Numbered from the stretch's first letter, positions 6,405-62,619 are shown. The stretch is 64,000 bases of DNA from Pirellulales bacterium (GCA_963733035.1 CAVTBU010000005.1:64001-128000), one strand, 5' to 3'. The notes: generated from the letters alone by a model not told the origin. A program made the numbers and translations.

Positions 6405-7415
6405 ATGCCTCCCAAGAAGAAACTTCCCAAAGCAACTCGACCCGACGCTGAGCGGCGATTGAGCCAGTCGGATCGGCTCGCGCGGCTTCTGAGAATTCTG
6501 GAACACGTCCAGGGGCGTGGGCGCTGGTCGGCGAAGGAATTGGCTGAGGCGGAGGAATGCACCGAGCGAACCATCTACCGCGCAATGCAATCGCTGGAGT
6601 TGGCGGGCGTTCCTTGGTACTTCGATAAAGCTGAACGTTCATATCGAGTTCGTGCGGATTACAAGTTCCCTGCGCTCAGTATGACAAGTCAGGAACTGAT
6701 CGATCAGGCTGCCGCTTCTGTGGTAGCGGTAGCCGTATCAGGATCAAAGACACCGCTTGCAATAAATAGGAAACTAAAGGCAGCGGCGACCGCCGGTGAA
6801 GTGCTCGATGATGCAGAAAAACTGATTTCCGTGCTTGGGCTGCAAATGGCAGAACACGGAAAGCACCGGGACGTGCTTCGGACGGTACAACGGGCACTTC
6901 TTGATCGCAAGCAACTGGCTGGCAAGTACAAAAGCCCTTACGATGCCAAATCGAAGCAGCTTCTACTGACGCCCTATCGACTGTGCCTCGTCAAGCAGGC
7001 TTGGTATCTGATTGCTACTCCGAAGGACTCGGATGCCCCACGAACTTACAGAGTCGCCCGATTCAACTCTCTGCGTGAAACCGTCACGACAGCAAATGTT
7101 CCACAGGAGTTCGACCTCAAGGAGTACTTTGGGGATGCCTGGGCGGCGTATCGCGGCGACAAGAATTACAAAGTCGAGATCGAGTTTACCAAGGACTCCG
7201 CCGACTTGGTGGTGGAAACCACGTGGCACGCCACGCAGGAAGTGCGGCGGCAAAAGAACGGCACAGTTCGGCTCTCTTTTCGCGTGGATGGGTTGAACGA
7301 GATCGTTCACTGGGTGCTGGGTTGGTCCGGTCGGGCACGGGTAATTCAACCTGTCGAACTACGCGAGCTCCTCGTCAGCCACCTCCAGGCTGCACTTACG
7401 CTAAACCAGGGTTGA
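6405..7415 (+). CDS. WYL-domain transcriptional regulator 2 (HTH-WYL-WCX)
   Basis: HTH (SAKELAEAEECTERTIYRAMQSLE), TPYRLCLVKQAWYLIA, YRVARF, HWVLGWSGRARVIQPVELRE. Confidence 0.93.
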   Translation: MPPKKKLPKATRPDAERRLSQSDRLARLLRILEHVQGRGRWSAKELAEAEECTERTIYRAMQSLELAGVPWYFDKAERSYRVRADYKFPALSMTSQELIDQAAASVVAVAVSGSKTPLAINRKLKAAATAGEVLDDAEKLISVLGLQMAEHGKHRDVLRTVQRALLDRKQLAGKYKSPYDAKSKQLLLTPYRLCLVKQAWYLIATPKDSDAPRTYRVARFNSLRETVTTANVPQEFDLKEYFGDAWAAYRGDKNYKVEIEFTKDSADLVVETTWHATQEVRRQKNGTVRLSFRVDGLNEIVHWVLGWSGRARVIQPVELRELLVSHLQAALTLNQG

Positions 7416-41100: not shown

Positions 41101-41328
41101 ACCACGCAGGTGTATACCCGAGCTCACGATACCAGTGCTTTCAATCAACAGCGTTGTCGCCCCTTTCGCGACCGCCGCTGACATTCTCGCAGCACGACCG
41201 TTGCAAGCCACGGCTCGGTAAGGCGTCATTCGAGCCGCCGCGGGCGCGCAGATTGCTTGAACCAACGAATCCGCACCGATAGGTTCAACTTCCAGGGCTC
41301 ACAAACACTCAGTCCTGGAGGTTTGACC

Positions 41329-43185: not shown

Positions 43186-43412
43186 GGTGTTGAGGCAGCT
43201 CGATGGTTAGGAGAAGCGATCTGTCGTTGGCTTTGCGACACTTAGATTCTGGCCACGTAGGGCACCCAAAACTGGGAAACCGAACCGCAGGCTCAAGCAA
43301 GACGAAGCCTCACCGCTCATCAAAGCGGCTAGCTTACGGTCGCGCTGCACAGCAATTGCTTCCTTCTCGCCGGCTGATGTGGCATAATCCCCGAGGTTCA
43401 GGAGCAATTCTC

Positions 43413-46103: not shown

Positions 46104-49100
46104 GCGGAATCCTGGAGGTCGTCCGAGCTGGTGCAGGCTCCGGAAAGACCACCGACCTCTGCAACATTGTCGCCGCCGCTGTCGAGGAAGGCCTTGACCC
46201 CGCTCGAATCCTGGCGACAACTTTTACTCGAAAAGCCGCTGTCCAACTCAAAGGGCGAGTCCAAGCCCGGCTACTGCGAAGCGATGGCACGGAGCCTGCC
46301 ACTGCCCATTTCAGAGCCGACCGCCTGGAGCTCGCCGCCATCGGTACTGTCCATAGCGTCGCTCACCAACTCATCACCCGTTACGCGATCGCGATGGGGC
46401 TTTCTCCGAGGCTCACCGTTTTGGACGAGTACGGCAGTGACCGGGCACTGAATAACCTGTTGGGCGAAATGGCTGAGCAAGACTGGGAGGATCTATACAG
46501 CCTGGCAGATTCGCTGTCACTCGATGGCGTGACCCGGCTCATTCTAGATCTACTCGCGCTACAGCGCGGCAATCGAATCAGCGACGACGAATTTCGACAA
46601 CACCTCGCATTGAGTGCCGATCGGCTTTGTCAACTGGTGGCTGCTGATGTAGACGATGACGGGGTAACGTTTGACCGACTTTATGAACTGGTTAACGATG
46701 CCCTGCAGCAGATAGAAGCCCTGACCAATGATTCGACGCAAACAACACAAAAAGCAGCACAGCAGCTTCGACGCCTCGCCGCACAGCGTTCTCACACTTG
46801 GAAGTGCCACGTTCTCGCGTTGTCGATCACTGCCGGGAAACGCTCTGGTGCAGATGTTCTGCTAAACCCACTTCGCCAGGAAGCGGCTCGTGTTCGGAGC
46901 CACCCCGAACTTCATGAACATATCCGCGCGTTTTCCAACCAGATTGGACAACGAACCGTTGAACTTGGGCAGCGTTACCTTACCTATAAGCAGGAGCGTG
47001 GGTTGGTTGACTTCACTGACCTCGAAGTTCTGTTGCTGCAGCTCCTAGAGAACGAAGAACTCGCTCCGAGCCTAAAGTCGGAATTTGACCTTGTCCTTGT
47101 CGATGAGTTTCAAGACACCAATCCGCTTCAACTAGCAATTTTTCAACGCTTCAGAGACCTCGCGCCTCGCAATCGTTGGGTCGGGGACCCCAAGCAGGCT
47201 ATTTACGGTTTCCGCGACACCGACCCCGAATTAGTCAATTCTGTCTGGACCAACGCGCCTGAGACACAGAGAACATCACTTCCAAAGAACTACCGTGCTC
47301 AAAAGGGGCTTGTTGACCTCGTTGGTCAGCTATTTTCACCTGTCTTCGGCAAAGAAGCCAAGCAAGAGCATCATCACGATGGTTCCCCCTGCGGAATTGA
47401 GCGGTGGCTGCTTGACGCCAGAAACCAATTCGATGAGACCACGTCTACCTGCTGCGGTATCGCGAAGCTAAAAGCAGAGGGCTGGCAATATCGAGACATC
47501 GCCATACTCGCTCGAACCAATCATCAACTCGTTCAAATCGCCGCCGCGATGGACGACCTCGGCATTCCATACTTACTGCAGAGTCCTGGCTTACTAGCAA
47601 CCCGTGAAGGGACCATCGTTCTTGCCGGACTTCGCCTCGTTGCCGACCGCGGTGACTCGCTCGCGGCAGCAACCATCTTGCACCTCCTGGAAGACCCGAA
47701 CGCCGACACACCCAATTGGTTTGCCGAACGACTAACCGCGCTTCGGACGCAGCTGGACTCCGAAGACGGCAATTCAACTTACACAAATCCATGGCAGGAC
47801 AATTCGAAACTTGCCCCACTTGAAACCATCGATTCCCAAACCCTTCCGCCCGCGGCAGTCATGCAGCAAGTAATTGAAGCGCTGAGAGTGCCGGAGCTCG
47901 TCGCCAACTGGGGAGATCCTTCGCGAAGAAGTGCACACCTCGACTCACTTCTACAGCATGCCTCCGAATACGAGCAGACCGCTCTCGATGAAGGCCGCGC
48001 CGCAACACTGACTGGACTCATCATCCACCTGGAGAACCTTGAAGGAGACAAGAAGGATTTCCGCCATGCACCTCTCGGGCACAACGCGGTGGCGCTCTTA
48101 CCTACCACACGTCGAAGGGACTTGAGTGGCCCGTTGTTGTGCTCACGGGCTTAGATTATGGTCGCAGCTCGGATGTCTGGTCGCCCGTTGTCGTTGCTGG
48201 CGAGAACAATAACAACGATCCGCTTCTTGGCCGATCGGTCCGCCACTGGTGCTGGCCCTTTGGATTAACTGACGGCGAGTATGCGCGTCTCGTTAAGGGA
48301 AGCGGGCTGGAGGATGATGCCATCAACTCACCCGAAGGTCAGACCAAACTGCAAAGCGAACTTGATGAGGGACTACGTCTTCTCTATGTTGGCTTCACCC
48401 GGGCACAAACCAAAATAGTCTTAGCACATCGCGCCAACAAATATTCATGGCTAGCTCAGCTAACGAACATTGACACTCTGCTTCCGCCTGCTCTTCAGGA
48501 AGGCGAGCACGCGGTTGACGGAATCGATACGACCCTCGTAGTCCGAGAGTTAAACCCGCAGGAGGCTGATGCTTGTAGATGTCCCCGTTCCGCCAATGAG
48601 ACATGGTTTGCTCCAGCAATGTCTCAACCCACTGCCGATATTGTCGAGCGATACCATCGTCCAAGTGCCGTGATCGCACCCACAAATGATGCGACATTCG
48701 AAATAGTCGATATCTCCGAGACGCCCTACTTTCCATCAGGTGCGGACGAATCCAACTATGCAGCAATTGGCGACGCCGTCCATGCCTACTTCGCCGGACT
48801 TCCGTCTCTACCATCTGCAACCCAGGACCTCAAGTTGAGCGTCGCGAGACGATGCATCGAAGGGTACGGCGCGTCAGCCTATCTCACTCCCGATGTTCTC
48901 GTCGCCAAGGGAGAGAGCTTTCGCTCCTGGATAAACTTGCACTACCCTGGAGCAACGTGGCACACAGAAGTGCCCGTATCTGCGCCGCGGCTCGCCGGCG
49001 GTCAATGGGTGGGGACGATCGATCTCATCATTGAAACGCCAGATGGCAAAATTGCCATCATCGACCACAAGAGCGCACCGCTTCGACGAGAACACTGCCA

Positions 49101-49239
49101 GCAGAAGGCAGCAACCTTTAACGGTCAATTGTTGGCATATCGCGAAATACTTTCCACGAGCGGAATCACCGTCAGTTCGCTCTATATACATTTTCCACTT
49201 GCGGGCGTCGCGTGTCGTCTGCAGCTTCGGGATTCATGA
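46100..49239 (+). CDS. AddA-like UvrD/SF1 helicase-nuclease; single-base frameshift at ~48100
   Basis: AGAGSGKT, TFTRKAA, VDEFQDT, VGDPKQAIYGFR, NYRA; restoring one base gives TYHTSKGLEWPVV; LLYVGFTRA; C-terminal GTIDLI...IIDHKS...QLLAY; ATGA overlap with the upstream gene. Confidence 0.9.
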
Positions 49240-49519
49240 TCGGGAAGGGCTTTTCCCCTGCAAATCAGTTTTTCTCGTCTTCCGGCTACTCTCAGCATCT
49301 TAATTGCCTCGACATGCTGTAGTTTAGATTTCCGCCGTTTTCGATCATGTAGAGTGTGACGTGTTGGAAATCCGCATCGGCCCCCAACGTTTGCCACCTA
49401 CCCTGAAAAAATTTCTTCACCATCACTATATTATTCTGCGGAATCATGGCGGCTCGGCACGGCGCTGGGCTGTTTACCGCACCAACCCTCAAGGAGACAT
49501 ATATCGAAAGACTTGCAAG

Positions 49520-50356
49520 ATGATCGCAACCAACAAGAAGAATTTCATCCTATGGCTCTGTTCCCACCAGGAATCACCCCTCACTTTTTCCGACAACCTG
49601 CTCTATTCGTATTTGGCATGGCGTCCTGGAGGTAGCCTGCGTCAAATCGCTCAAGCAACTGGGCTAGATCGCAGCAAGTCAGTCGCTCCCGCCGTTAATC
49701 GGCTGCAGGATTTTGGACTTGTATCGGAAAACGACTATGAAGCGCTGCCGCCTCCAGCGGGCTGGTTTATCCCCAGACGATACACGGATGCCGACTGGCG
49801 AAAACAGTTTCGCTATTTTCCAATCGCCATCCGTCAAACTGAACTCACCGCGCGGCAGAACGCCCTCTATGCTGCCATCAAATGGAAACCGGCAAAGAAA
49901 CTGTCGTGGTATGCTGCGTGCTTGAAACTCAATCGCTCGGGCGCGTACAAGACCGCTGGAGAACTGCGACGGAAACAGTTCGTCGCCGCCGACAGTCTGA
50001 CCGTGCAGCCGACTGCCAAGGATATCTGGCAAGACAGAGAAGACGCCACGTTCGTGACCGACGCGCTCAAGGCGAAGTTCCCTCCTGGCTATGAACCACT
50101 CATCGCCTGGGAAGTGTCTGATCTATGGCGGAAGGTGGAGGAAGGCTCTGAGAAGTTGCTCGAACGCACGAACTGGTATAACCGCAAATACGTCCAGGGT
50201 TATTGGGAACGGGTGACAAAGATGCTGCTTACCCCTGAGCAAATTGAAGCGTTCATCTGGGAGTTTGGCAAACTATTGGACTACGTATTGGTTCGCGGCA
50301 AAGACTGGTGGGTTTCTCACCTCAACCACGAGCATCGTCTGCGCACAGATCAATAG
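49520..50356 (+). CDS. Putative replication initiator with two HTH-like segments (true end may be 50429 after a frameshift)
   Basis: LLYSYLA...SLRQIAQATGLDRSKSVAPAVNRLQDFGLV; second HTH-like YAACLKLNRSGAYKTAGELRRK; followed by iteron-like repeats. Confidence 0.55.
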   Translation: MIATNKKNFILWLCSHQESPLTFSDNLLYSYLAWRPGGSLRQIAQATGLDRSKSVAPAVNRLQDFGLVSENDYEALPPPAGWFIPRRYTDADWRKQFRYFPIAIRQTELTARQNALYAAIKWKPAKKLSWYAACLKLNRSGAYKTAGELRRKQFVAADSLTVQPTAKDIWQDREDATFVTDALKAKFPPGYEPLIAWEVSDLWRKVEEGSEKLLERTNWYNRKYVQGYWERVTKMLLTPEQIEAFIWEFGKLLDYVLVRGKDWWVSHLNHEHRLRTDQ

Positions 50357-50430
50357 AATGTGGCACCAGAAACTTCCTGGCAGTCACTTCTATTGGAGTT
50401 TCGAACCGACGACTTTGGGGAAGTTTTAGG

Positions 50431-50572
50431 TGGTCGCTTTGGCGACAGTCGCTGGCTGCTTTTGCAACAGGCGAATGAAAATGTGGTTGCTTTTGCAACA
50501 GCACGGTGACCGAATGGTTGCTTTTGCGTGACAAAGATTAAAAGAGATACAAATAAGAAGAGAATGAATAAT
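50431..50572. repeat. Four 18-bp iteron-like direct repeats (TGGTTGCTTTTGCAACAG consensus) plus A-rich tract; candidate origin
   Basis: Copies start at 50431, 50453, 50484, 50515; A-rich 50532-50572. Confidence 0.65.
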
Positions 50573-50927
50573 CTCAAGCCCTGCGGGCTGAGGTCACTGA
50601 AAAGCCGCCTTCGGCGGGTCGAAGTTGCCGTTGTCTCGCCAAAGCATGGCGCAGGTCCAACCTGGAACGTGCGTCAGGATAGTTGGAAGCACTCCAGAGT
50701 CAAAATTTGGGGCACTTTGTCCCGTGCAGAGCAACGACGCTACCAGACTGCCCGTTCTTGGTATCAAATCCGCCAAAATCTTGGCGATTGAGACCACACG
50801 AGGGTGATTTGAGGTCGAGAGTTGATTTCGGCGATTTTGAAACGTTCTTGCAGTGGTCGTTGTGACTTCCAAAGTCCCCTGCCAGTGAAGGGCAACATCG
50901 CCAGCCATCTGGCTTCCTCTGGTGGAG

Positions 50928-51191
50928 TCATTCGCCCAGGTCTTGCAGCAGACTCAAGAAGTCATCGTCGTCCTCGTCACGGGAAACATCTTCCGGGGTC
51001 AGTGCCTCAAGTTCACGAAGTGCTGATTGGAATTCTTCGTCCAGACTATGTTGGCGATCTGCATACCATTGACGCAGATTGGCAATGGCAATCTGCTTCG
51101 CAGACTCAAAGTTGTAACTCGGGCGAGCCACCGCGATATGGCGACCCTCAACCGAATAGTGCACCTGATTCGTTGGTTGGTAGTATCGCAT
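50928..51191 (-). CDS. Small hypothetical protein
   Basis: GAGGAG SD; acidic C-terminus. Confidence 0.55.
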   Translation of the reverse strand: MRYYQPTNQVHYSVEGRHIAVARPSYNFESAKQIAIANLRQWYADRQHSLDEEFQSALRELEALTPEDVSRDEDDDDFLSLLQDLGE

Positions 51192-51442
51192 TCGTTCTCC
51201 TCGATGGATTGGTTATGGGGGTTGATAGACTTCGCTGGACTTCGTAATTGTCTAGGGGCAATCTTCGTCCAGCCTGACACGCTCTTTTGCTGCCGCAGAT
51301 TGCTGCTCCAGCGCCGCGAGAATCCGCCACGCTTAATTCTCGTCGAGCACCCAGGCAATTACCTCACCGTTTGAGTCGAGCACCTCGTAGCCGTCGCCAG
51401 TGCTACGCGCGGCGACCTGTAAGAGGTGCGGTAGAATCGAAA

Positions 51443-51733
51443 CTACTCATCACCTTCAAGCAGATTCAACGATTCACGAATCTCTTGCATTTGCAGCGCC
51501 AAGAAGACGGCACACGCCAATACCTGTTCGGTTTCGCTCGCGAAATGGGTATTGTCCCAAACCGTTTTCCCCGTCGCGGTCCAGCGAGGTTTGCCATCCG
51601 GCCCGATCTTGACCTTGCCGTGTCTTACTAGGTCACTAAGGATCTTGTCGATCGCCGCGGCGTCGAGCGAACGATCATGGCAAAAACGCACCGTCGAACT
51701 CAATTCGTAAGAACCTTTCTCGCTCTCAACCAT
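51443..51733 (-). CDS. Small hypothetical protein (winged-helix-like)
   Basis: AAGGA SD; IDKILSDLVRHGKVKIGPDGKPRWTATG. Confidence 0.55.
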   Translation of the reverse strand: MVESEKGSYELSSTVRFCHDRSLDAAAIDKILSDLVRHGKVKIGPDGKPRWTATGKTVWDNTHFASETEQVLACAVFLALQMQEIRESLNLLEGDE

Positions 51734-51824
51734 TTTGTGCTTCCTTTAGATGTGCATGTTTCTGGAGGCATGGTTCCGTGATGGGTGGTGACAAGGCGAA
51801 CGCTCTTGAACTTATTGCTCACCG

Positions 51825-52422
51825 TCAGGCTTCGTCGTCGTGTCCGAAGAACGGAAGAATATGGCTTTCGGCGTCACCTAAACATCCCCGGACAGTGACC
51901 CTCGACTTGTCGGACCACGTGTAGGGATCAGAGGGCGCGTAGAACGCTTGGTTCCACTCGTCCGCGTCCGGATCATCAACGCTGCCGTGCGCACCGCAGC
52001 AGATGCACCTCAGAATCAACCACACTTCTGCCACGCGCTGTCGAGCAGACGACCCATTTGTGGTCGCACTGGCGGATTCGATTCAGATCAGCCGGAGCAA
52101 GGGGTTGGGCAACACAGAGATTTTCACCACCCGGCAAGACTCCGCGGTCTTCATCCGCCTCCGCCTTGAGAACATCGCTTACGGCGACTCTAAGGACTCG
52201 CCCGCCATGCTCAACGACCACTGGAAGACTGTCGCTTGGCTTGAGTCCCAAGTACGACGAGTTGTCGTGGTCGTCGTCATTCAGGTCCAATACGCGGAGC
52301 GGAGAACCTAATTTTAAACGGGACAGATACTGCAGCCGCGGATCGTCTTGGTTTGCTGCCCAGTCTTGACCCTGCGCGAACTGTTTCTTGCTGGGTTCTT
52401 TTTTCTTCGATTTCTTAGCCAT
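51825..52422 (-). pseudogene. Hypothetical protein with C-terminal Cys/His domain; frameshift near 52035
   Basis: ORF 51976-52422 (...QCDHKWVV) joins ORF 51825-52034 (VWLILRCICCG...VDDP...PYTWSDKSRV); AAGGAG SD. Confidence 0.55.
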
Positions 52423-52467
52423 TTGGATCTCCTTAGGTACCTCGTACTTCCGACGTAATGGCGATTG

Positions 52468-52962
52468 CTAGGCACTGGCTCTGAGCCGCAGTCCCGGCAA
52501 GCGGCTCAAGCGTTTCAACTGAATCGGAGTGACTTCCCCGTAAATCAGAAAACACACACCTTTCGTATTTCCAGGCGATCGCAGTTCGCACGGCGGTTCG
52601 AAATTAATACGCCGGTCCGGAACAAAGATCATCTGCGGTGGATCGTCGTGAACGGCGCGGGCCGTCAACGCGTTCATAGGCCAGACGACCACTGCAAGTT
52701 CTGCGTTCGAAGCCGCGGGCAAGAACCTTCCCGCGCCCGAGAACGGTGGGTTGCAGTAGACCCGCTCGCCTTCCCATGACTGCAGGGCCGCATCCTCTTC
52801 CACAGTCCAGTAGCGTTCGAGCAACGCATCCGCTTCGCTCGCGCACGCATCGATCGTAAACAGAAAGATATTGTCGAGAACCTCGAACACTGCTCGGGGT
52901 GTTCTCCAGCATTGACGAGCATCGCTTGGCTGGGTTTCAACAAACATTGAATTCCTTCTCAC
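52468..52962 (-). CDS. Phage-type DNA N6-adenine methyltransferase
   Basis: WRTP..VF..L...F.IDACAS, WEGERVYCNPPFS, RINF. Confidence 0.88.
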   Translation of the reverse strand: MRRNSMFVETQPSDARQCWRTPRAVFEVLDNIFLFTIDACASEADALLERYWTVEEDAALQSWEGERVYCNPPFSGAGRFLPAASNAELAVVVWPMNALTARAVHDDPPQMIFVPDRRINFEPPCELRSPGNTKGVCFLIYGEVTPIQLKRLSRLPGLRLRASA

Positions 52963-53819
52963 TACTGAATGTCAGGTTTCTGGTTCGGTGGTTCCGACTG
53001 CCCGTCTAGCCGTTGTTGTCGCTCCCATTTAGCCCACTCGACGCGCGCTTGCGCGAGTTCGACGTACGGCTTATGGATCTCGAAGCCGAGAAACCGGCGA
53101 TAGTTGAGCAGTGCCATGACCGCCGTTGTGCCCGAGCCCGCCAGCGGGTCGAGCACCAAATCACCTGGGCGGCTGAACGTAATGATCAAATCCTCTGCCA
53201 TTGCCTCGGGCATGACGGCTGGATGGCGATCAAATACGTACTTCGACTTACTCGAATTGTTGAAACCTGCGTTGTAGCGCCAGACGCAGCTCCGACGCCC
53301 GAAGGGCGGCACGACCTTGCCGGTTCTTTTTTGATAGGTCAGGTGCCCTGCCCGATTGCGGACGCTGTGTTGGATACGATCGCCAGCGGTAATGTTTGGT
53401 TTGTCTCGGATGATGTGGACCGTTTTCGGGGTACCCTTGGAGTAGACCATCGCAAATTCGGGCGTCCCTGGATGCCGTTGCGGCGGGCAGCGATGTCCCG
53501 CTCTTTCCATCACGAGCGGCACCACCAAGTCGAAGCCGCTATCTCGCGCCATTTCAAAATGCGTGAATACGCTTTGGGAGCAACGTCCCTGTTGGACTTG
53601 GTCTTGTTCCACCCACACGACGACGCCACCGGGTTCGACAATTCGCTCGAGCTCGTCGAAGACGAGTTCCGAATCGAAACTGTGCCCCCCATAGTTGCGC
53701 ATCTTGCCGTATGCCGGCGACGTCACCACGAGCGAAATGCACTCGTCCGGGAGCCGACGCATCAAGTCAACGCAGTCGCCATGGATAATCTCATCGATCC
53801 AAGGAATCTCACTCGACAT
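52962..53819 (-). CDS. Site-specific DNA methyltransferase, N4/N6 beta class
   Basis: IIHGDC, LVVTSPAY (SPPY variant), HPAVMP, VLDPLAGSGTT, FLGFEI; own GAGGGA SD before ATG 53819. Confidence 0.9.
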   Translation of the reverse strand: MSSEIPWIDEIIHGDCVDLMRRLPDECISLVVTSPAYGKMRNYGGHSFDSELVFDELERIVEPGGVVVWVEQDQVQQGRCSQSVFTHFEMARDSGFDLVVPLVMERAGHRCPPQRHPGTPEFAMVYSKGTPKTVHIIRDKPNITAGDRIQHSVRNRAGHLTYQKRTGKVVPPFGRRSCVWRYNAGFNNSSKSKYVFDRHPAVMPEAMAEDLIITFSRPGDLVLDPLAGSGTTAVMALLNYRRFLGFEIHKPYVELAQARVEWAKWERQQRLDGQSEPPNQKPDIQ

Positions 53820-54497
53820 CAAGTCCCTCGATAACGTTTGCAATTTGCTTTGCAGCCTGCCTTGCCATTTCCAACCAATGCTTCCGCTCCTCGTCGTCTG
53901 GCTCGTTGTCTTGGAGGTTTTCGGCGAGCCATTCCCGCGGCTAACCATCTGCGCAAGACGCATCCCGAAGCTATCTGGATCCTCTTTGGGAGGGGCGGGT
54001 AATGTGGCTTTGGTTTCACCGTTTTTGCTGTTGCGGTCGCGGTTCGCGCTCGTGTCACTTGAGCGATCGGGCTTCTCCGGCTTCTCTTTGCCGGTTGGAA
54101 TGTCAAATCGCTCGTACGCCTGCTGGATCGTCAGTCCCTCGATTTCCGATTCCGACGAAGCGCGTTCGAACAACTGGCGCGCACGACAATCTGTAGCCGC
54201 GCTGACATTCAGCCTTTTTAGAAAAGATGCCCACTCGCCGTGTTTGACTTTCTTCCGCGCGAAGGCGAGTGCTCGCCCAAGGCGGTAGGTATGAACCGCC
54301 AACCGTTTTTCGTAGCTGAACACGGCTTGGTGCTCGTGTGTGATCTCGGTTTCCAGGTCTTCGAGCGACCATGTGTCGTCGGGGACAAATCTTTCAGCGT
54401 GAAACGTTTTCGGTTTCGTCCTTTTTGTTTTCGCAATCATTCCATTTCCGTTTCGAGAAGTGGCATTTGCTAACGGTGCGGGTTTCGCCATGCTCAA
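53809..54497 (-). CDS. DUF3102-like protein; frameshift near 53935 makes it read into the methyltransferase
   Basis: LGRALAFARKKVKHGEWASFLKRLNVSAATDCRARQLF; alternative frame EWLAENLQDNEPDDEERKHWLEMARQ...DVE* ends at 53809. Confidence 0.7.
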
Positions 54498-54586
54498 TTT
54501 CCGTTCACCGAGAGGGGCTCTCCCTGTCAGGGAACGGTTGATCCAATCCTTTTCGGCTAGATCGCTGAGATTGGTTCCGACGGTTG

Positions 54587-55117
54587 CTAACCATCGATTG
54601 CTACCGCCTGACTGACCTTTTGCTCTGCATCGAGTGCCGCGGATTCCTTGATTCGCTCCACGCGGTCTTCGGTCTGCTCAAGCAAGCGATACCGGAAGCC
54701 ACCAAATTCACCGCCAACGTGCCGCTCTCGGCTTTTAGAAATCCATCCAAGGACCACTAGTTCTTGTAGAGCGGCTCCAGCAGTGTTGCGATTGCAGCCA
54801 CACGCACGAGCGAGCGCGCCTACGGTCCAAACTGCCTGCAGCGCAGTTACGCGATCGCCGTGGATTTCCTCGCGTTTCGTCGCCCTTGGCTCTATGGAAG
54901 AGTGCGGTTCGCTCTCCTCGCATTCCGCAGGGCCAGCGACGGCGTGGACTGTCTCGGACCCGCAGGAGTCAACCGTCAAAGAGGCGCGTGGAACGCCGAA
55001 TCTGATGGCGTGCTGGAGCAGAGCGATCAGCACTTGAAAGATTCGAGGCGACGCTAAGTTGAAGCCGGGCGTGCCCGGCTTCGGCAAGTAGCATAGAACA
55101 TTCGACGGCGAGCGCAT
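54587..55117 (-). CDS. Winged-HTH DNA-binding protein (phage/replicon type)
   Basis: TVGALARACGCNRNTAGAALQELVVLGWISKSRERHVGGEFGGFRYRL. Confidence 0.7.
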   Translation of the reverse strand: MRSPSNVLCYLPKPGTPGFNLASPRIFQVLIALLQHAIRFGVPRASLTVDSCGSETVHAVAGPAECEESEPHSSIEPRATKREEIHGDRVTALQAVWTVGALARACGCNRNTAGAALQELVVLGWISKSRERHVGGEFGGFRYRLLEQTEDRVERIKESAALDAEQKVSQAVAIDG

Positions 55118-55118
55118 G

Positions 55119-55156
55119 AAAAAAGACCTCCCATTGCAGTGGTGGGGGAGGTCTTT
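55119..55156 (-). terminator. 11-bp stem-loop plus T tract directly upstream of ATG 55117, containing its SD
   Basis: Minus strand AAAGACCTCCC-N13-GGGAGGTCTTT-TTT-C-ATG. Confidence 0.6.
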
Positions 55157-55910
55157 GTTAGGTCGATATTCAGATATTTAGTCGATATTACGCTTATTGG
55201 CAGTCACGGTCCGAACAAGAAATCAGGACACCGGAGGGCAGGAAAATAATATCGACCTCGCCCGTATCAGATTGTGGTGCCGATGACGTTCGGCGACGTT
55301 GTTGTACCTCAGCGGTTGACCATCGATTCGTTCACTTCGATAGCAATTATATGCCAATTTTTTCGATTGTAAAGTGAACCAAGCGTTTTTCCATCTACCA
55401 TGCACAATTGGCTGTGCACCGCCAACGACAAAACAGTGAGGAGGCATCCTCGCTGCGACTGGCTATGATACGTGAACCAAGCATTGCATCCGACGCGTAG
55501 TGGTGCGCCAATCAAGGCATCTCCATGCGCATGATAGCGTGCGTGGTGATCTGGCGAACCTAACGTCGAGATGTTTAGCGAGCGCCACCACAATTGGAGA
55601 CACTGGCATCCAATCGCGGTCGCGGCGCCTCACGATGAAACGGTCGTGGTCGTCGGATGACGCGACTCCAGTTGTGATCTGTTCCGCCGACCTCGGTGTC
55701 CATTGTGTTACAACGGCAGGACTGGTCACGGCAATCGCCGCGATCTGAAAACAACTTTTCGGAATGTCATCTTTAGCGCGGTAATATTTCTGGCCAGCCA
55801 ATCGACATGCTCATCCGACGTAGCGAGCCCCAACCGACGATGGGCCGCTGAGGAATCAAGTTGTCGTTGGTCGGCGAAGCTCGGGATCCCTATCGGAGAT
55901 AAGTCGACCT

Positions 55911-55976
55911 TGTCAGGTCTTTCTCACGCCAGTGTCAGGTACGGTGTCAGGTATTCGGTGACCGCAGATCCTGACA
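55911..55976. repeat. Clustered TGTCAGG repeats (three direct, one inverted)
   Basis: 55911, 55933, 55945; CCTGACA at 55970. Confidence 0.5.
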
Positions 55977-56401
55977 CGTTCTGTAAGTGACTGAAGCGAC
56001 ACATGTTAAGGAGTCAACGGAAGCGACCTCTCGGAGACCCGCCGCCTCCACTTTTTGGCAGTTTTTCCGCCAGATGACACCGAGTGCTCCTCGGTGTCGT
56101 AACCCCTGTCAGAGCAGGGGTTTTTCGTTCACGCAGTCGCGTGCGATTGCTGCGCGGCCTCTCGGGTCGCTTGTGACGACCACATCCTCGCCCACCTGCG
56201 CTTGCCAAGTATCCCGTTTCGTACGCAGCCCGGCCCAAACTAACTGCAACAACAAAGCGTCGTTTAGACCCCACAGCGCGAGCGAGAGTCGCGCCGTTTT
56301 TCCACCGCAAGTTACTTCGACGCAGTTATCGGCTTTCCAGAACAGCCACTCCTGGACGACGCCGTTTCTGTTGCAAGAGAATCGCAGCCAGGGCTGAGGA
56401 C

Positions 56402-57403
56402 CTACGCCGTCACCCTTTCAGCCTCTTGCCAGCGAACGGCGAGCGTTGCCCACAAGCGCCACACGCTTGGGTCGCGGCGAATCATGCACTCGATCGCGAT
56501 ACCGATCATTAACGCCGCAAGCGAACGTGCCGCGTCGCTTTTCGAATCCATGTCATCGAAGGGCAGCGGGCGTCCAAACTGAACCCGAACTTCGCCGTCG
56601 TCTAGCGGCCATTTCCGGGCGACGGTGACAGGAACCACTGCGGCCCCCGTCCGCAAGGCGAGCGAGACGGCGGCGCTGGCGATCAGGATCGGACCTCCGA
56701 GCAACGTCGACAAGATGCCGGGTGTGCCGGGATAGAGAAAGTCCGCATAGATTGCCACGCACCCACCCGAACTCAATCGCGTCAACATCGGTCGTAAGGC
56801 GGCGGCAGTCGTTGGCAGCAGTTCCACGCGATCTCGCAATCCGTCCAACAACAGTGAGCTGTGTGGTGCGCTGCGATCGCCCAGATTGGCCACGGCACTT
56901 AGCCCTAGCCGTTTCCACGCGCCGTGCATAAAGCCGAACCCGGGGTGACTTTGATGCACCGACAGGGCAATAACGCCGCGCCCGCGGTCGAGCGCCTTGC
57001 GCAAATGCGTTTCGCCAGCAACCGTCACGTTGTCCCACGGATGGCCGTCCCTGGCGTATCGAAAATCCACGACATCCGACAAGTTTACAAACAGCGATTG
57101 CGTATGACGTCGCAGTATCTCGGCCAATTCGGCATCCGACCAGACGTGGTCCAGGCCTTGCGTGTTCGCGCGTAAGAACGACGCATATCCTCCGCAATCG
57201 CTATCGAAAGCGGCGGCTCCCAACTCGGCCAGCCAGGCGCGACGCTCCACGGCCGGCATCGCGCGACTCGCCGCGAGCCAATCCTCGTCGACGAGCCAAT
57301 TCCACAACAGCCGAGGCAGCGCATTCATGGCGTCCGCCGAACTGAGATTGGCAAGATCGCACCGCACGCGCCGGTCGACCCGCTCACTCGTGCCGTTCTG
57401 CAT
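56402..57403 (-). CDS. Lysophospholipid/lipid A acyltransferase (LpxL/HtrB) family protein
   Basis: VAGETHLRKALDRGRGVIALSVH, RPMLTRLSSGGCVAIYAD, LALRTGAAVVPV, IRRDPSVWRLW; overlaps the rSAM stop by 20 bp. Confidence 0.8.
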   Translation of the reverse strand: MQNGTSERVDRRVRCDLANLSSADAMNALPRLLWNWLVDEDWLAASRAMPAVERRAWLAELGAAAFDSDCGGYASFLRANTQGLDHVWSDAELAEILRRHTQSLFVNLSDVVDFRYARDGHPWDNVTVAGETHLRKALDRGRGVIALSVHQSHPGFGFMHGAWKRLGLSAVANLGDRSAPHSSLLLDGLRDRVELLPTTAAALRPMLTRLSSGGCVAIYADFLYPGTPGILSTLLGGPILIASAAVSLALRTGAAVVPVTVARKWPLDDGEVRVQFGRPLPFDDMDSKSDAARSLAALMIGIAIECMIRRDPSVWRLWATLAVRWQEAERVTA

Positions 57404-58796
57404 ATCGTATTAGCCGATCTGACGCCGCGAGGCGGCGGAAAATTTCCGGAAATAACGCCAGCGAAAGCGAGCATGTCACCGGGTCAACACTATCCAGGCT
57501 CGCGCGTGCCAGGCATGTTCCACCGCAGAAGACACGCCAATCGCAATCGCGACATTGTGTCAGCGAGTCCGCGCTACGAGCCCGGATGGAGGCCGCCCGG
57601 TCCGACGAAAGGCTCGCCGCCAAACCACCGGCGCGGATGTGTCCCAGATCCAACGTGCGATCCTTGATGCAATCGCACGACCTCACTGTCCCGTCGGCGG
57701 CCACCGAAACCAGATCGGCGGCGGCTCCACAGCCGTTGCGCAAACAAAAGCTTTCGCGCCGGTACGACAATACGTTGCGCAAATAGCGTAGCACCGGGCG
57801 AACGGCCAAGTCGTCGAACTCGCCCTGTTCCACGGCATCCAGTAACTTCAGATGCGCGGCGATCAACTCGTTGTCGTCCGGTGCGTAATCTTCGGGCCCT
57901 GTGGCCCCTCGCCCGCCCGCGTCAAACATCGTGGCGTCCCATTGGCGCACACCAAGGTCGCGCACATAGTGGGCAACGTCGATCAGGTGCTCGACATTTG
58001 CTCGCGTGATGGTCGTCAGAACGCCGATTTTCGGAACCAGCTCCGGAAAATCACGTAGGGCCTGTTCGATTGACTCGTGACTTCCTTGGCCGGCGTGATC
58101 GACCCGCCATCGATCATTCAACTCGGCCGGTCCGTCGAGCGATATCCCAACGCCAATCTTCTCCCGGAGAAGGAAGTCGACCGTCTCGCGCGTAAATCGC
58201 GTACCGTTTGTTTGCAAGCTGAAACCAACGGTCTTGCCGCGCTGGGCCGCGGCACGGCGTGCGTATTCCGTCAGATGCACCAGTTCCGGGAACGCTAGCA
58301 GAGGTTCGCCGCCGTGGTACAAGAGCGTCAATTGCTCGCCGGCCAAATCAAGCGCCTCATCGATCGCCCGCTCGGCGACCTCAATGGGAAGCTTGTGGTG
58401 ATACGTGTCTGGGTCGAAGTCATAACAATAGGCGCAAGCCAGATTGCAGTACCCAACCAGTTTCAACAACAGCGTCTGGAGCGGGCCGCCCGTATGCACG
58501 AAGCGCGCTTCGGTAAACGCCGTGCGTCCGTCGCGCTCCAGCAACCCACTTTCGAACAGTCTGCCCAGCAAAGGTTCGTGGGCGGGCTGGCGGTCGTCCA
58601 TCAGCCCAAGTTCAACCGCCTGCACCAATCCGATAAACTCCGGCATTTTCTCCTGCGGAAGAATTGCCCACGACCCACTGGGAGGGTGTAGCAACAAAAC
58701 CTGGCCGCCGGGAATCGCGCGACGACGTATCGGGCGAACAAATCGCCAGCGCGCCTTCCGCGCCAAGGACTCCCACGGTACAAACGCGACAGCCAT
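57384..58796 (-). CDS. Radical SAM/SPASM-domain protein (anSME/peptide-maturase clade) with RRE-like N-terminal extension
   Basis: CNLACAYC, YHGGEPLL, LQTNGT, GISLDGP..LND.WR; SPASM CLRNGCGA...GTVRSCDC...CRDCDWRVFCGGTC...C; ~100 aa N-terminal domain. Confidence 0.92.
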   Translation of the reverse strand: MAVAFVPWESLARKARWRFVRPIRRRAIPGGQVLLLHPPSGSWAILPQEKMPEFIGLVQAVELGLMDDRQPAHEPLLGRLFESGLLERDGRTAFTEARFVHTGGPLQTLLLKLVGYCNLACAYCYDFDPDTYHHKLPIEVAERAIDEALDLAGEQLTLLYHGGEPLLAFPELVHLTEYARRAAAQRGKTVGFSLQTNGTRFTRETVDFLLREKIGVGISLDGPAELNDRWRVDHAGQGSHESIEQALRDFPELVPKIGVLTTITRANVEHLIDVAHYVRDLGVRQWDATMFDAGGRGATGPEDYAPDDNELIAAHLKLLDAVEQGEFDDLAVRPVLRYLRNVLSYRRESFCLRNGCGAAADLVSVAADGTVRSCDCIKDRTLDLGHIRAGGLAASLSSDRAASIRARSADSLTQCRDCDWRVFCGGTCLARASLDSVDPVTCSLSLALFPEIFRRLAASDRLIRYAERHE

Positions 58797-58798
58797 GG

Positions 58799-59089
58799 TC
58801 AGCCCTCGCACAGCTTCCAATAGCCCGCCTTGCGGGACAGATCGCTGTCTTTCTTCTTCAGCTTATTGATGTCCGCTGCTTTCAGCGTGCCCTGCGTGAA
58901 CACCACATGGGTCATGTCGTACTCACCGTCGTGTCCAAACACAGCGCGCACCGTGTCGTCGAGGAACTTCTGGTCGGTTGCCTTGACCGCCATCACCCGG
59001 TTGTAGAGGTCACTGGGCAATTTAATCTCGATCGTGGATTCAACCTTCGGTTGGGAGGATCGTTTTGGCGATTTCTTCTTTTTCCCCAT
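58799..59089 (-). CDS. Putative RiPP precursor peptide (96 aa; C-terminus RKAGYWKLCEG)
   Basis: Short ORF whose stop is 2 bp before the rSAM ATG; AAGGGA SD; its only Trp and Cys lie in the last 6 residues. Confidence 0.6.
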   Translation of the reverse strand: MGKKKKSPKRSSQPKVESTIEIKLPSDLYNRVMAVKATDQKFLDDTVRAVFGHDGEYDMTHVVFTQGTLKAADINKLKKKDSDLSRKAGYWKLCEG

Positions 59090-59135
59090 TGCGGGCATCC
59101 CTTTCATAGACAAAACCATCGGGAGTGGTAGGACA

Positions 59136-59191
59136 ACGGGCCCCTCTGCAAGGGCCCGCTAAGTGTGGGGTAGCAACCAGCCCGATGTCAA
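59136..59191 (-). promoter_or_regulatory. Sigma70-like promoter TTGACA-N18-CACACT followed by GC hairpin CGGGCCC-N8-GGGCCCG
   Basis: -35 at 59191-59186, -10 at 59167-59162; hairpin at ~59137-59158. Confidence 0.5.
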
Positions 59192-59240
59192 GCAATTTCT
59201 TTTGAGGCCGCTGCTCGCGGGAAGCAACTCGGCTGCGTGC

Positions 59241-61793
59241 CTACCGCCCGGGCGGCGGCGATTGCCCCAACACCTCGGCCGCTTCGCCGTACAGGCGGCG
59301 GATCTGCCGCAAATGACGCGGCGCTTGAGCCCATTGGCTGCCCCGTGAATACCAGTCGAGGGCCTCGTCGCGACTGCCCAGCTGCCAGAGCGACATTGCC
59401 AGGTAGAACCAGTCCCAAGCATCGCCACCTTCCCGCAAGTCGATGCTTTTCCGAATTGCATCGACGGCGTCTTGCCACTGCCCCGACCGGTAATACGCCA
59501 CAGCCAGTGTGTTCCACGCTTCGGCGTCCCTGGGAGCCAGCTCGGTGGCCTGCCGGGCGAGTCGGCGTGCATCGTCCAGCCGGCGGACTTCGGGGTCCGC
59601 ATAGTTTGCCCAAAACCTCGCCGCGCGGTTGCATAGCTCGACGCTTTCGGGATATTCGGCCAGCGCGGCCGCGTAGATCGCCGCGGCCTCCTGGGGCTTG
59701 CTCGACTCCTCGTACATCTCGCCAACCGTACCAACGGCGATGGCCCACTCGTCGCGGTAAGTGGACGAGTCCGGGTGCGCGTCCATCAGGTCGTGCAACA
59801 GTTTCTCCGACTCTCGAACCTTTTCGATCGCTCGTTGACGGTCGCGCATCACCCACGTCGCCATGCCGAGGTAGTAGTCGAAACCGGCGAGGTCCTGGCG
59901 GAGCCCAGGAACTTCCGGCGCCCTTGAAACGAGCTGTTCCCAGATTTCGGCACCCCTGCGAATCGCCCTGAAGGATGCCAACGGATTGGACGGTGGCGCG
60001 GCACTTCGGCGGTTATACCGCGGTCCTCGAAATACACCACCAACCCAACTCGAGATTTGAGCGGCATCCACGCCGGATTCAAGTGATTGTTCCACCAGGT
60101 CCAAGCCCTGATTCAGCGATGCCAAGGAATCATCGCTGCGACCCAGCGTCATTTGTACTTGCGACAGCCGCAAATAAGCCGAGGCCACCTCGGCCTTGAC
60201 CACCGGATCATCCCCCTGCGTTTCGAGGAATTCCCTGTAATACCGCAAGGCTTGTTCCAATAGTTCATTGCGCAGCGGTTGTAGTTCTGGTTCGCCGAGC
60301 AACCGACTCTCACTGACGGTCGTCATATAGTCGTCCACGGCTCGGCGTGCGCGTTCGAAGTGCGCCTTGGCCCGAGTTCGTTCCTGCGAGGCGACTTCTC
60401 GTTGGCGAGCCTCGCGCGACAAGGCAAGTTGAGCCTCATTGCGTCGCTCGTCCGCTTCCTTCCTCGCCGCCGTTTCACGAACCAAGGCGGCCTGTGCTCG
60501 TTGATAGGCCAGCGACGACACGATGGTGCCGGAAACGAGCGCGGTGACCGTCAAACCGATCAGCAAGGCGAGGACGGGGTTGCGCCGCACCCAGCGCCAT
60601 GCGCGGCCCACGGAACCGACGGGCCGAGCCGCGATGGCGCGTCCTGCGAGAAACCGGCGCAAATCATCAGCCAGCTCTTGCGCCGTCTGGTAGCGCCGTG
60701 CGGCGTCCTTCTCCAGGCACTTCAGCACAATCGTTTCCAGATCGCGGGGGATCGTTCGATTGATGTTGCGCGGCGACGGCGCCTCGTCGTGGATAATCTG
60801 GTAGCTAACCGTTGCGGCGTCGCCGTGGAAAGGGCACTCGCCGGTCAGCATCTCGTACAGCGTGACTCCCAACGAGTAAACATCGGTGCGTCGGTCGGCC
60901 GACGCCGCTTGCCCTTTTGCCTGTTCGGGAGACATGTAGGAGGGCGTCCCGAGCAGTTCGCCATCGAGGGTCATCGTGCGACTGTCGTCCGCCCATTTGG
61001 CCAAGCCAAAGTCGGTGATATGCGGTTGATTGGCTTCATCCATGATGATGTTGCGCGGCTTTAGGTCGCGATGGACGACCCCACGTTGGTGCGCATGATC
61101 GAGCGCAACGGCGAGCTGCCGGCAGAGTTCAGCCGCGTCGCGCGGAGTCAACGGCGTCTTTGCCAGCCAGTCGCGCAAATTCTCACCGGCGATGTAAGCA
61201 GAGACGATGTAGGCCATCGCCCCGTCTCGCCCCACCTCATAGACCGGTACGATTCTTGGATGAGAAAGTTGCGCCGCGGCTCGACCTTCGCGCAGGAAAC
61301 GGTTTAGCTCATCGTCAGACAGGTAATGGGCTCGGGGAATCTTGATTGCAACGGTCCGCTGCAGTCGAGGGTCATTAGCCCGCCACACTTCGCCCGCCGC
61401 GCCGGCCCCAAGCAGCTCGAGCAGCTCGAAATGAGCGACCCTACGACGAACCGCTGGCGGCTCGGCGGCATCCGTGTTTTGGGACTCTGAAGCTACGGCG
61501 CGCTGCATGAACCTGGCTTGTTCGAGCTGCTCGGCAAACTCCGGAAACCGCGTCGAGTAGGCTTGCCATGCCCCTTCGTTGGTGCCGTTTTCACGCAACT
61601 CCATGTCGACTAGGACCAGCTCGACAAATAGGCGGCGGCGGTCGCCAGGATCGGATGCCGCGAGATACGCCGCCAGATCTGGCGCATCACCGGCCCGAAT
61701 CTGCCGTTCAAATCGGTCGCATAGGAGGTCAATGCGATCGTCGACCGTCAGCACGGACTGTTGCTCATTTCGTATCGAGGTCTCGTTCTGCAC
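59241..61793 (-). CDS. Ser/Thr protein kinase with TM segment and TPR repeats
   Basis: GAGAAGEVW, HRDLKPRN, DFGLAK, GTPSYMSPE; planctomycete-type N-terminus (LCDRFE...PDLAAYL). Confidence 0.94.
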   Translation of the reverse strand: MQNETSIRNEQQSVLTVDDRIDLLCDRFERQIRAGDAPDLAAYLAASDPGDRRRLFVELVLVDMELRENGTNEGAWQAYSTRFPEFAEQLEQARFMQRAVASESQNTDAAEPPAVRRRVAHFELLELLGAGAAGEVWRANDPRLQRTVAIKIPRAHYLSDDELNRFLREGRAAAQLSHPRIVPVYEVGRDGAMAYIVSAYIAGENLRDWLAKTPLTPRDAAELCRQLAVALDHAHQRGVVHRDLKPRNIIMDEANQPHITDFGLAKWADDSRTMTLDGELLGTPSYMSPEQAKGQAASADRRTDVYSLGVTLYEMLTGECPFHGDAATVSYQIIHDEAPSPRNINRTIPRDLETIVLKCLEKDAARRYQTAQELADDLRRFLAGRAIAARPVGSVGRAWRWVRRNPVLALLIGLTVTALVSGTIVSSLAYQRAQAALVRETAARKEADERRNEAQLALSREARQREVASQERTRAKAHFERARRAVDDYMTTVSESRLLGEPELQPLRNELLEQALRYYREFLETQGDDPVVKAEVASAYLRLSQVQMTLGRSDDSLASLNQGLDLVEQSLESGVDAAQISSWVGGVFRGPRYNRRSAAPPSNPLASFRAIRRGAEIWEQLVSRAPEVPGLRQDLAGFDYYLGMATWVMRDRQRAIEKVRESEKLLHDLMDAHPDSSTYRDEWAIAVGTVGEMYEESSKPQEAAAIYAAALAEYPESVELCNRAARFWANYADPEVRRLDDARRLARQATELAPRDAEAWNTLAVAYYRSGQWQDAVDAIRKSIDLREGGDAWDWFYLAMSLWQLGSRDEALDWYSRGSQWAQAPRHLRQIRRLYGEAAEVLGQSPPPGR

Positions 61794-62399
61794 GGATAAG
61801 TTCCCTGGTCCATGCGTCGCGAATTAATTGCAACTTGCGCTGGATCGACCGTGTGCTCAGCGCCAAACCCGCGGCAATCTCAGACACGGTGTATCCCTCG
61901 ATCCGGGACACCGCGATTTTCCGCAATTCGTCGTCGCGTAGCAAACCCATCAGGCGGCGGCTCTCTTCCGCAAACGCAACCAAATACTCCGGTGTTAGAG
62001 AATCCCCAATTAGTTGATCGAGACGTTGGCCATTCCCCGTGTGACTACCATCGACGAGTGCGGACTCAGAATGCACTTTACCGCCGCCGCGTTTCTTCGC
62101 CTTCTCTCGCCGAATAAGGTCGATGCTCTTTTGCCGTGTCATCGCCAACATTAGCCACCACAATTCATCGCGGTTTCTCACATCCTCAAAGCGGCCTGCC
62201 GCGGCGCCGCGACAAAGGCTGAAAAAGACGTTTTGGGCCACGTCCTCCTCATCGGCGACACTTTTTCGCGCGCGAGCCAACTCCGACATTGCGCCTCGAT
62301 CAACGGTGCGCGATACCTATCCCAGATTTTCTGAACTGCGTCCAACTCGCCTGCTTTGAGCGAGGCGATCCATTGACTGACCGAGTGCTGCGTTGGCAT
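61765..62399 (-). pseudogene. ECF sigma factor (STK-associated); frameshift near 62290
   Basis: MPTQHSVSQWIASLKAGELDAVQKIWDRY in one frame; DEEDVAQNVFFSL...GYTVSEIAAGLALSTRSIQRKL in another. Confidence 0.85.
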
Positions 62400-62619
62400 C
62401 GATAACCGAATTGTACCGGGGGTTGGAACTTGGTGCTGGAAACGCGATCGCACCTAGTTTATAGAGCCGAACAACAATCGTCCAATTTCGGCCGAAACGT
62501 GGCGTCGGGCGTCTTTTCGAACACAATCATGCGAACGCTCCGGGGGCCGTTTTCAGGACCGGATCGCCTCCACCGGTCATCTTCTTGCCATTCACAGTTG
62601 TTGGAGAAAGCTCCCCCCG

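Follow-up and report, generated by a model that had tools for sequence, protein, structure and literature searches.

What is a radical S-adenosylmethionine (rSAM) enzyme doing between the gene for a protein of only 96 residues and the gene for a relative of the lipid A acyltransferases? The question is raised by an operon in a 64,000-nucleotide stretch of DNA from a Pirellulales bacterium (GCA_963733035.1 CAVTBU010000005.1:64001-128000). We call the whole stretch the window and count positions from its first letter. A reading made by a model from the sequence alone, hereafter the sequence-only reading, proposed that the operon makes a cross-linked, acylated peptide and represents a new class of peptides synthesized ribosomally and then modified post-translationally (RiPPs). 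We believe this idea stands in an altered form. There is about an even chance, in our judgment, that the operon is a RiPP-like system for modifying the tail of a small protein, with the small protein and the acyltransferase-like protein as its core and the rSAM enzyme as an optional cross-linker. Its product is probably a small protein that is cross-linked and possibly lipidated, of an undescribed kind. These are the features on which the argument turns:

58799-59089, minus strand: small-protein gene, an open reading frame (ORF) call; 96 aa from the ATG at 59089, ending in a TGA stop
58802-58822, minus strand: tail codons Y90-W91-K92-L93-C94-E95-G96, the proposed modification site
57384-58796, minus strand: rSAM/SPASM gene, 470 aa, Pfam PF04055 and PF13186
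56402-57403, minus strand: acyltransferase-like gene, 333 aa, PF03279, with the lysophospholipid acyltransferase (LPLAT) fold of PatA and LpxM

Only 2 bp separate the TGA that ends the small ORF from the rSAM start codon, an ATG, and the 3' end of the rSAM gene overlaps the start of the acyltransferase-like gene by 20 bp. These coordinates agree with the three-gene minus-strand operon of the sequence-only reading. An alternative ATG upstream, at 59119, would give a small protein of 106 aa; the 96-aa start is favoured because the homologues all open M-[A/G/S]-K-K.

The small protein and its acyltransferase-like partner

We would explain the operon as follows. In the 96-aa protein a folded domain resembling a leader would carry a short, flexible tail that ends G-Y-W-K-L-C-E-G. 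The acyltransferase-fold protein is predicted to bind the folded domain, and its target would be the tail's invariant Lys-x-Cys; most likely it would place an acyl group on Cys94 or Lys92 (S- or N-acylation). In this genome that tail would be modified a second time, by the rSAM/SPASM enzyme. The likeliest product would be a C-C cross-link from Tyr90 or Trp91 to Lys92, of the W-x-K/R cyclophane kind, and the main alternative, a less likely one, would be a thioether at Cys94. The tail motif would then be split, aromatic-x-K/R being the part for the rSAM enzyme and K-x-C the part for the acyltransferase-like protein. The product would probably remain a small protein in modified form, within the cell or at its membrane, because no protease or exporter is encoded nearby: among the ORFs scanned in 39757-62289 there is no protease or transporter family, which is what the sequence-only reading had said of the cluster.

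The first body of evidence is the family of the small protein. Its N-terminus is Lys-rich, and a predicted beta-alpha-alpha-beta-alpha domain at about residues 19-79 precedes the tail. The structural model has a predicted local distance difference test score (pLDDT) of 61, and at that modest confidence it matched no PDB fold at E <= 0.001. Neither the protein nor its family is covered by a model in Pfam or NCBIfam. A word-based homologue search with the small ORF retrieved only the small ORF itself, and a profile search later recovered the family. C94 is invariant in the seven aligned orthologues. A profile of seven orthologues run against 1.84 billion representatives gave 47 hits, of which we kept 43, leaving out P0159, P0186 and P0188, which are long with partial or repeat matches, and P0192, which is 110 aa and has no Cys. 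The 43 representatives are 75-223 aa long, mostly start with M-A-K-K, and have in common a strand-helix segment, T-[I/V]-E-[I/L]-x-[L/V]-P. All 43 carry their last Cys 0-9 residues from the C-terminus and a K or R before it, at position -2 in 41 and at position -1 in two. The precursor C-terminus, which the sequence-only reading had proposed to check for conservation, is therefore conserved as K/R-x-C or K-C throughout the family. In 31 of the 43 there is an aromatic residue among the five preceding positions. One representative, P0150, is 58% identical overall to the window protein, and its last ten residues, K-A-G-Y-W-K-L-C-E-G, are the same.

The second is that the pair exists without the rSAM gene. 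Orthologues of the acyltransferase-like protein, at 45-67% identity, occur in seven other genomes of the order (eight of 201 sampled, counting this one). In a sample of 401 genomes of the phylum none turned up outside the order, the single match being this genome itself. In all seven related genomes a homologue of the small ORF lies directly upstream of the acyltransferase-like gene with no rSAM gene between them, and in two of the four loci examined (G469 and G023) the two genes overlap by 4 bp. A family-level rSAM is missing from all seven: G009, G449, G469, G564 and G579 gave no match, and the best scores were 32 bits in G023 and 90 and 69 bits in G512. Only this genome, among the eight with the pair, has an rSAM gene between the small ORF and the acyltransferase-like gene. 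Since seven related genomes keep the pair without it, the rSAM enzyme is optional in this lineage.

The pair also has a constant neighbour upstream, and a conserved element lies between them:

59241-61793, minus strand: Ser/Thr protein kinase with TPR repeats (Pfam Pkinase, 4e-50)
59162-59192, minus strand: conserved upstream element, CTTGACA (59192-59186), about 18 nt, then CACACT (59167-59162)

The four genes are collinear on the minus strand, in the order kinase, small ORF, rSAM, acyltransferase-like. An orthologous kinase (52-58% identity) is directly upstream of the pair in six of the seven relatives, the seventh being a 2.1-kb contig. The conserved unit in this lineage is kinase, small ORF and acyltransferase-like gene. 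The kinase is a conserved neighbour, and its position alone would not imply a functional link to the pair. Its PADLOC hits to the defence system PD-T4-6 were set aside as generic kinase-domain similarity. The kinase orthologues of the relatives (L183-L186 and L196) open with a zinc-ribbon-like C-P-H-C...C-P-S-C segment; the first 120 residues of the window kinase differ from them, and similarity begins at residue 121. As for the element, the sequence-only reading spoke of a promoter-like site. A sigma-70 consensus scan of 55500-62600 called no promoters. An alignment shows C-T-x-G-A-C-A to be invariant in six of six orthologous kinase/small-ORF intergenic regions, with a second, GACAC-like box downstream of it in five of the six. 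The TTGACA at 59191-59186 lies inside this invariant block, so we take it for a real conserved element. It likely serves the small-ORF operon as a promoter or as a site for a regulator.

The third body of evidence is a predicted complex. The small protein and its acyltransferase-like neighbour, folded together from separate alignments, scored 0.77 (runs 0.80, 0.77 and 0.77), and the best of three controls scored 0.00. The mark for such scores was reached by 116 of 157 solved complexes versus 2 of 215 mismatched pairs, counts that are only rough because own alignments were used. Between runs 68% of the contacts or more are shared, and the partner pLDDT is 64 or higher. On the small protein the interface takes in residues 20-25 (a strand), 28-35, 42-54, 57-69, 74, 77, Y90 and W91, and on the enzyme residues 231-238, 257-258, 275-281, 294-310 and 322-329. 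The folded part of the small protein is thus predicted to dock on the acyltransferase-like protein.

The acyltransferase-like protein belongs where the sequence-only reading had placed it, in the lipid A acyltransferase family. It matches PF03279 (Lip_A_acyltrans) at about 42.6-43.1 bits against a cut-off of 22.3, and its model (pLDDT 88) finds PatA (5F2Z, E 2.1e-11) and LpxM (5KNK, E 4.2e-11) in Foldseek, with a target-normalised template modelling (TM) score of 0.75-0.80. It scores far below the cut-off of every NCBIfam equivalog, the best being the phosphatidylinositol mannoside (PIM) acyltransferase at 37.7 versus 209, and the LpxL models giving 16-25 versus 248-540. The genome has a second, canonical PF03279 gene (150 bits, contig 8). 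Going by these scores the window protein is a divergent paralogue, distinct from the canonical one, and there are no lipid A genes around its gene. In an alignment of 19 sequences H150 falls in the column of the canonical members' catalytic His, H153 is also present, and D221 and W315 are invariant in 19/19. The three canonical sequences in the alignment carry H-x4-E. P0141 has Tyr at the first His position and keeps the second His. D221 could be a substitute acid, as Glu200 is in PatA. Catalysis by the window protein is plausible from its sequence, not assured, and some of its relatives may be only binding proteins.

The radical SAM enzyme and its loci in other phyla

The rSAM protein has the motif C-N-L-A-C-A-Y-C and matches the Pfam models Radical_SAM (PF04055, 3.8e-14) and SPASM (PF13186, 6.6e-06), both above cut-off. 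The cluster cysteines C117, C121 and C124 are invariant in 32/32 family members, and so are the SPASM-region cysteines C351, C356, C374, C415, C418, C424, C428 and C442. The radical-SAM domain starts near residue 114, which leaves an N-terminal extension of about 105 aa with a conserved G41 and W43. The sequence-only reading was right about all of these: motif, complete SPASM cysteines and an extension of about 100 residues. None of the named maturase models of NCBIfam comes near its cut-off. The best is PapB, 161.9 versus 340 (2.3e-47), followed by QhpD, DynA and the anaerobic sulfatase-maturing enzyme (anSME); lower still are SCIFF at 113.9/425, YhhB at 113/445, FxsB at 99/370, AmcB at 83/425, GrrM at 82/310 and XyeB at 72/450. 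Because every named model scores so far below its cut-off, we regard the window enzyme as part of a separate rSAM family. Its closest solved structures are CteB (5WGG), ChlB (9GM3) and anSME (4K37).

This family is distinct and unnamed. About 80 cluster representatives score 180 bits or higher, and the next scores are down at 117 bits. It is also rare and patchy. Among 41 genomes (this one and 40 relatives) only this one has a family-level rSAM, the best non-self score being 77 bits, and among 401 genomes sampled from the phylum the only one is again this genome. Two of 201 sampled Micromonosporaceae genomes have it, none of 401 sampled Sphingomonadaceae genomes does (query P0027), and a tblastn search of a plasmid collection with the rSAM gave no match. 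The G+C content at third codon positions (GC3) is 0.68 in the rSAM gene and 0.70-0.75 in its neighbours; since it matches them, composition cannot decide between gain and loss of the gene.

Seven other in-family rSAM loci come with their DNA: L013 from Bryobacteraceae, L014 from Micromonospora, L015 from Thiodiazotropha, L016 from Ascidiimonas (Bacteroidota), L093 and L095 from metagenome contigs, and L195 from a second Micromonosporaceae genome (Actinomycetota, like L014). They were drawn from the matches listed in genome and metagenome scans, most of which are distant rSAMs; L094 is borderline and falls outside the family in the tree. An acyltransferase-like gene directly follows the rSAM gene in six of the seven (L014, L015, L016, L093, L095 and L195), and L013 has none. 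The triad of the sequence-only reading therefore recurs, and it does so in other phyla. A hidden Markov model (HMM) of the acyltransferase-like protein matched six of 161 loci scanned, all six of which had been used to build it, so it is informative through its negatives: none of the 155 other loci matched (153 distant-rSAM loci, borderline L094 and in-family L013). A proposed link between P0005 and P0141, drawn from a shared size of 5803 bp, was set aside as weak; the same matching gave an impossible pair of 1961 bp, too short for both genes.

The small ORFs of these loci carry a common motif. By an automated rule, W-[S/T/Q]-[K/R] occurs in the ORF just upstream of the rSAM gene in six of six in-family loci with upstream sequence versus 8 of 137 out-of-family loci; the motif was defined after the sequences had been seen. 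A looser W-x-[K/R] occurs in the upstream ORF of 43 of the 137. All seven rSAM-linked precursors have aromatic-x-K/R. The L015 precursor ends in a tandem E-W-S-K-A-T-C repeat, the L195 precursor (246 aa) ends W-S-K-T-T-C-C, and those of L014 and L016 have W-S/T-R-A-C-C within a protein of about 130 aa. The L013 precursor (locus at 5596-7380) has three W-x-R motifs and no Cys; that of L093 has S-W-S-R-G-F and no Cys. We infer a cyclophane rather than a thioether because the other precursors of the family share W-x-K/R and because rSAM enzymes that join Trp to Lys or Arg are known. The best-scoring named relatives form thioethers, yet two of the seven family precursors offer no Cys for one.

Several of these loci have further features that deserve mention on their own. 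L013 lacks both the acyltransferase-like gene and a precursor Cys, which fits the Cys belonging to the acyltransferase-like step. At L195 (5093-8813, G704) an HFCD flavoprotein, the 246-aa precursor, the rSAM enzyme and an acyltransferase-like protein without the His are encoded in that order; the flavoprotein is of the cysteine decarboxylase family, below the named cut-offs, and suggests that a C-terminal Cys is also processed there. Downstream at L015 (5472-10647) are genes for a 198-aa protein that fits no known family, for an S49 peptidase and for an S9-like alpha/beta hydrolase. The last two are possible processing enzymes of the kind missing from the window. Genes like these, the HFCD gene at L195 and the peptidase and hydrolase genes at L015, are typical of peptide-product clusters. 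At L093 (2997-4376) a TraN-like gene of F-type conjugation lies just upstream of the cassette, which hints that the cassette can move on conjugative elements. The genes downstream in L015 and L093 that had been suspected of being GNAT-like were discarded, having no Pfam or NCBIfam match and no similarity to one another.

A bolder reading can be built on the whole of this. An LPLAT-fold enzyme would have been recruited to lipidate a ribosomal small protein at an invariant C-terminal Lys-x-Cys by way of a docked leader-like domain, an optional rSAM enzyme would make an aromatic-to-Lys/Arg cyclophane on the same tail, and the modules would combine differently in different phyla, with only the pair in this Planctomycetota order and the full set of three in this genome and in Actinomycetota, Bacteroidota and Gammaproteobacteria. 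We hold this to be possible and rather doubtful.

Weighing the readings

Several points pull against a system for modifying the tail. The canonical H-x4-D/E dyad of the acyltransferase-like protein is incomplete, the acid at +5 being Gly155, and the catalytic His is absent from the rSAM-linked proteins of L014, L016, L093 and L195. For these two reasons the protein may bind and not acylate. A stable subunit or a regulator would suit the predicted complex just as well as a substrate would. The rSAM enzyme is dispensed with in seven relatives, so it could have a different substrate. Two of the seven rSAM-linked precursors, those of L013 and L093, have no Cys. The window tail reads Y-W-K-L-C, and the other rSAM-linked precursors have W-x-K/R, so Tyr would have to serve, by analogy, as the equivalent aromatic residue. 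In a quick tree all of the other in-family loci with DNA sit in sister clades of the 60-member clade of the window rSAM, of which the window is the single locus seen. For the RiPP recognition element (RRE) that the sequence-only reading had proposed to look for in the N-terminus there is no PqqD signal: none of the 32 rSAM family members has a PqqD match at E <= 1. Both the acylation and the cross-link chemistry are inferred from sequences, models and analogies. What stands of the cross-linked, acylated peptide is then a matter of parts. The rSAM enzyme does not define the system, and the acylation depends on a protein with Gly for its acid whose His is lost in four relatives.

One rival explanation is that the small protein is a partner and never a substrate. 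It would be either a regulatory subunit or a Cys-based acyl carrier that presents an acyl thioester on its flexible tail, in the manner of acyl carrier protein (ACP) with LpxL. A membrane lipid would then be the true acceptor, and the rSAM enzyme would tune the carrier or act elsewhere. The fold agrees, since it matches lipid acyltransferases that use acyl-ACP or acyl-CoA (PatA, LpxM). So do the large predicted interface, which is mostly on the folded domain, the translational coupling of the pair in relatives, and the lack of a protease or exporter nearby. Against it, no acyl-loading enzyme stands next to the pair in any of the seven loci. The rSAM-linked small ORFs of other phyla carry repeated core-like motifs, and genes of the cysteine decarboxylase family or for peptidases adjoin them, as is typical of peptide products. 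The genome also has its canonical PF03279 gene already. This rival survives better than the others, and we consider it unlikely.

A second rival would make the operon a toxin-antitoxin-like or regulator-enzyme pair, in which a DNA-binding protein of the ribbon-helix-helix (RHH) type would both control the acyltransferase-like protein and neutralise it, with the rSAM enzyme as a passenger. The small protein is predicted to open strand-helix-helix, the genes are tightly coupled, the predicted complex is strong, the operon abuts a mobile element, and a conserved direct-repeat-like site lies upstream. The difficulty is that no RHH family matches the small protein at E <= 0.01, that only two of 24 family members or precursors gave RHH_5, at E 0.18-0.3, and that no PDB fold matched the small protein either. 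In the predicted complex the strand needed for the ribbon pairs with the enzyme. Six of seven relatives have the small ORF and the acyltransferase-like gene at one chromosomal position, by the same kinase, and the invariant K-x-C tail is left without a role. The stand-alone RHH protein with an unconserved C-terminus, which the sequence-only reading named as the finding that would count against it, is not what we see, and we think this second rival very improbable.

The least credible rival, that the rSAM enzyme is an anSME or another trans-acting maturase lying between the two genes by accident, can cite the 43 sulfatase matches of a genome in which no rSAM passes the anSME cut-off, the place of anSME among the better NCBIfam matches (3.9e-37) and the absence of the rSAM enzyme from all seven pair-bearing relatives, but the rSAM enzyme scores 128 with the anSME model, whose cut-off is 349, 17 FGE-domain matches in the genome could serve sulfatase maturation, the rSAM family is linked across phyla to the acyltransferase-like gene and to small ORFs with W-x-K/R, the gene fits exactly between its partners and matches them in GC3, and, as the sequence-only reading noted, no sulfatase is near, there being none in the window and the nearest lying about 85 kb from the operon.

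The surroundings of the operon are worth recording. An apparent integrated mobile element (41257-55117) adjoins its 3' end and includes a large serine recombinase (41257-43185), PD-(D/E)XK nuclease and UvrD-type helicase genes (43203-49239), a Dam-type methylase (52468-52962), an N6/N4 DNA methylase (52962-54497) and a helix-turn-helix (HTH) protein (54587-55117). Its G+C content is 0.52-0.57, below the operon's value of about 0.61. The roughly 1.3 kb between the HTH gene and the last gene of the operon (55118-56401) has no convincing ORF and no Rfam match, and contains a terminator-like hairpin at 56101-56122. An Rfam scan of 54500-62500 likewise gave no match.

Consequences and known systems

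If a tail-modification system is what the operon encodes, the LPLAT fold would join the small set of folds that tailor ribosomal peptides, and the rSAM maturases would gain a family whose substrate motif is of the W-x-K/R type. A small-protein family with an invariant Lys-x-Cys tail would come to light. On the bolder and more doubtful reading there would also be a new route of protein or peptide lipidation in bacteria, independent of Lgt/Lnt and of GNATs. An LPLAT guided by a leader would be new as a biocatalyst for lipidating peptides. Peptides that are both lipidated and cross-linked attract interest as antibiotics and for engineering. The genomes with and without the rSAM gene form a natural contrast for separating the two modifications.

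The sequence-only reading did not recall an LpxL-fold enzyme paired with an rSAM enzyme, and the literature searched agrees: it holds no description of an LpxL, PF03279 or lipid A acyltransferase paired with an rSAM peptide maturase, with the limit that subscription journals were mostly outside the search, so a published account is possible. Among the matches listed no work joins RiPP terms with LPLAT or PlsC terms.

The nearest known systems on the rSAM side are the cyclophane RiPPs (the XyeB/YhhB/FxsB/GrrM triceptides, WgkB tryglysin, WprB, DarE and DynA). In darobactin a W-S-K motif is cross-linked by an rSAM enzyme. Like them, the operon has its rSAM/SPASM gene just after a small precursor, the precursors of the family relatives have W-[S/T/Q]-[K/R], sometimes repeated, and there are NCBIfam matches to DynA, YhhB, FxsB, XyeB, GrrM and AmcB, all far below cut-off. 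The triceptide core motif, aromatic-X-X3, may be compared with Y90-W91-K92 in the window tail and W-x-K/R in the relatives. WgkB and WprB cross-link Trp to Lys or Arg within W-x-K/R (PMC11851443). The operon is unlike these systems in its Y-W-K-L-C tail, in having as precursor a 96-aa protein with a folded domain, in its LPLAT-fold partner, and in having no separate gene for an RRE, protease or exporter.

The ranthipeptide/SCIFF maturases (PapB, CteB) and QhpD are similar in other ways. PapB and then QhpD are the best NCBIfam matches, and CteB (5WGG) is the best solved relative. Cys94 of the window tail stands beside Glu95, and CteB also has an N-terminal extension of about 100 aa, the alignment starting at CteB residue 97. 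The differences are the scores of 161.9 versus 340 for PapB and 113.9 versus 425 for SCIFF, and precursors of which two in seven have no Cys while seven in seven have aromatic-x-K/R.

With PatA, LpxL and LpxM the window protein shares PF03279 above cut-off, the fold, H150 at the position of the catalytic His and the invariant Asp D221. It differs from them in having Gly for the acid and a small protein to which it is coupled and which it is predicted to bind.

The fatty-acylated RiPPs (selidamides, lipolanthines, goadvionins and lipoavitides) resemble the proposed system in the leader-guided acylation of a ribosomal peptide, on Lys or the N-terminus. Their enzymes are GNATs (PMC13647313). In the passages drawn on, this 2026 paper on RiPP N-acyltransferases covers GNAT enzymes only and mentions neither LpxL nor lipid A. 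The window operon is different: no GNAT family occurs among its proteins or their neighbours, and no FabH or LuxE-type enzyme is involved either, as the sequence-only reading had anticipated when it set the locus apart from the acylated RiPPs it knew. What is new here is the pair without an rSAM enzyme, the 43-member K-x-C family, the predicted docking and the two-part tail motif.

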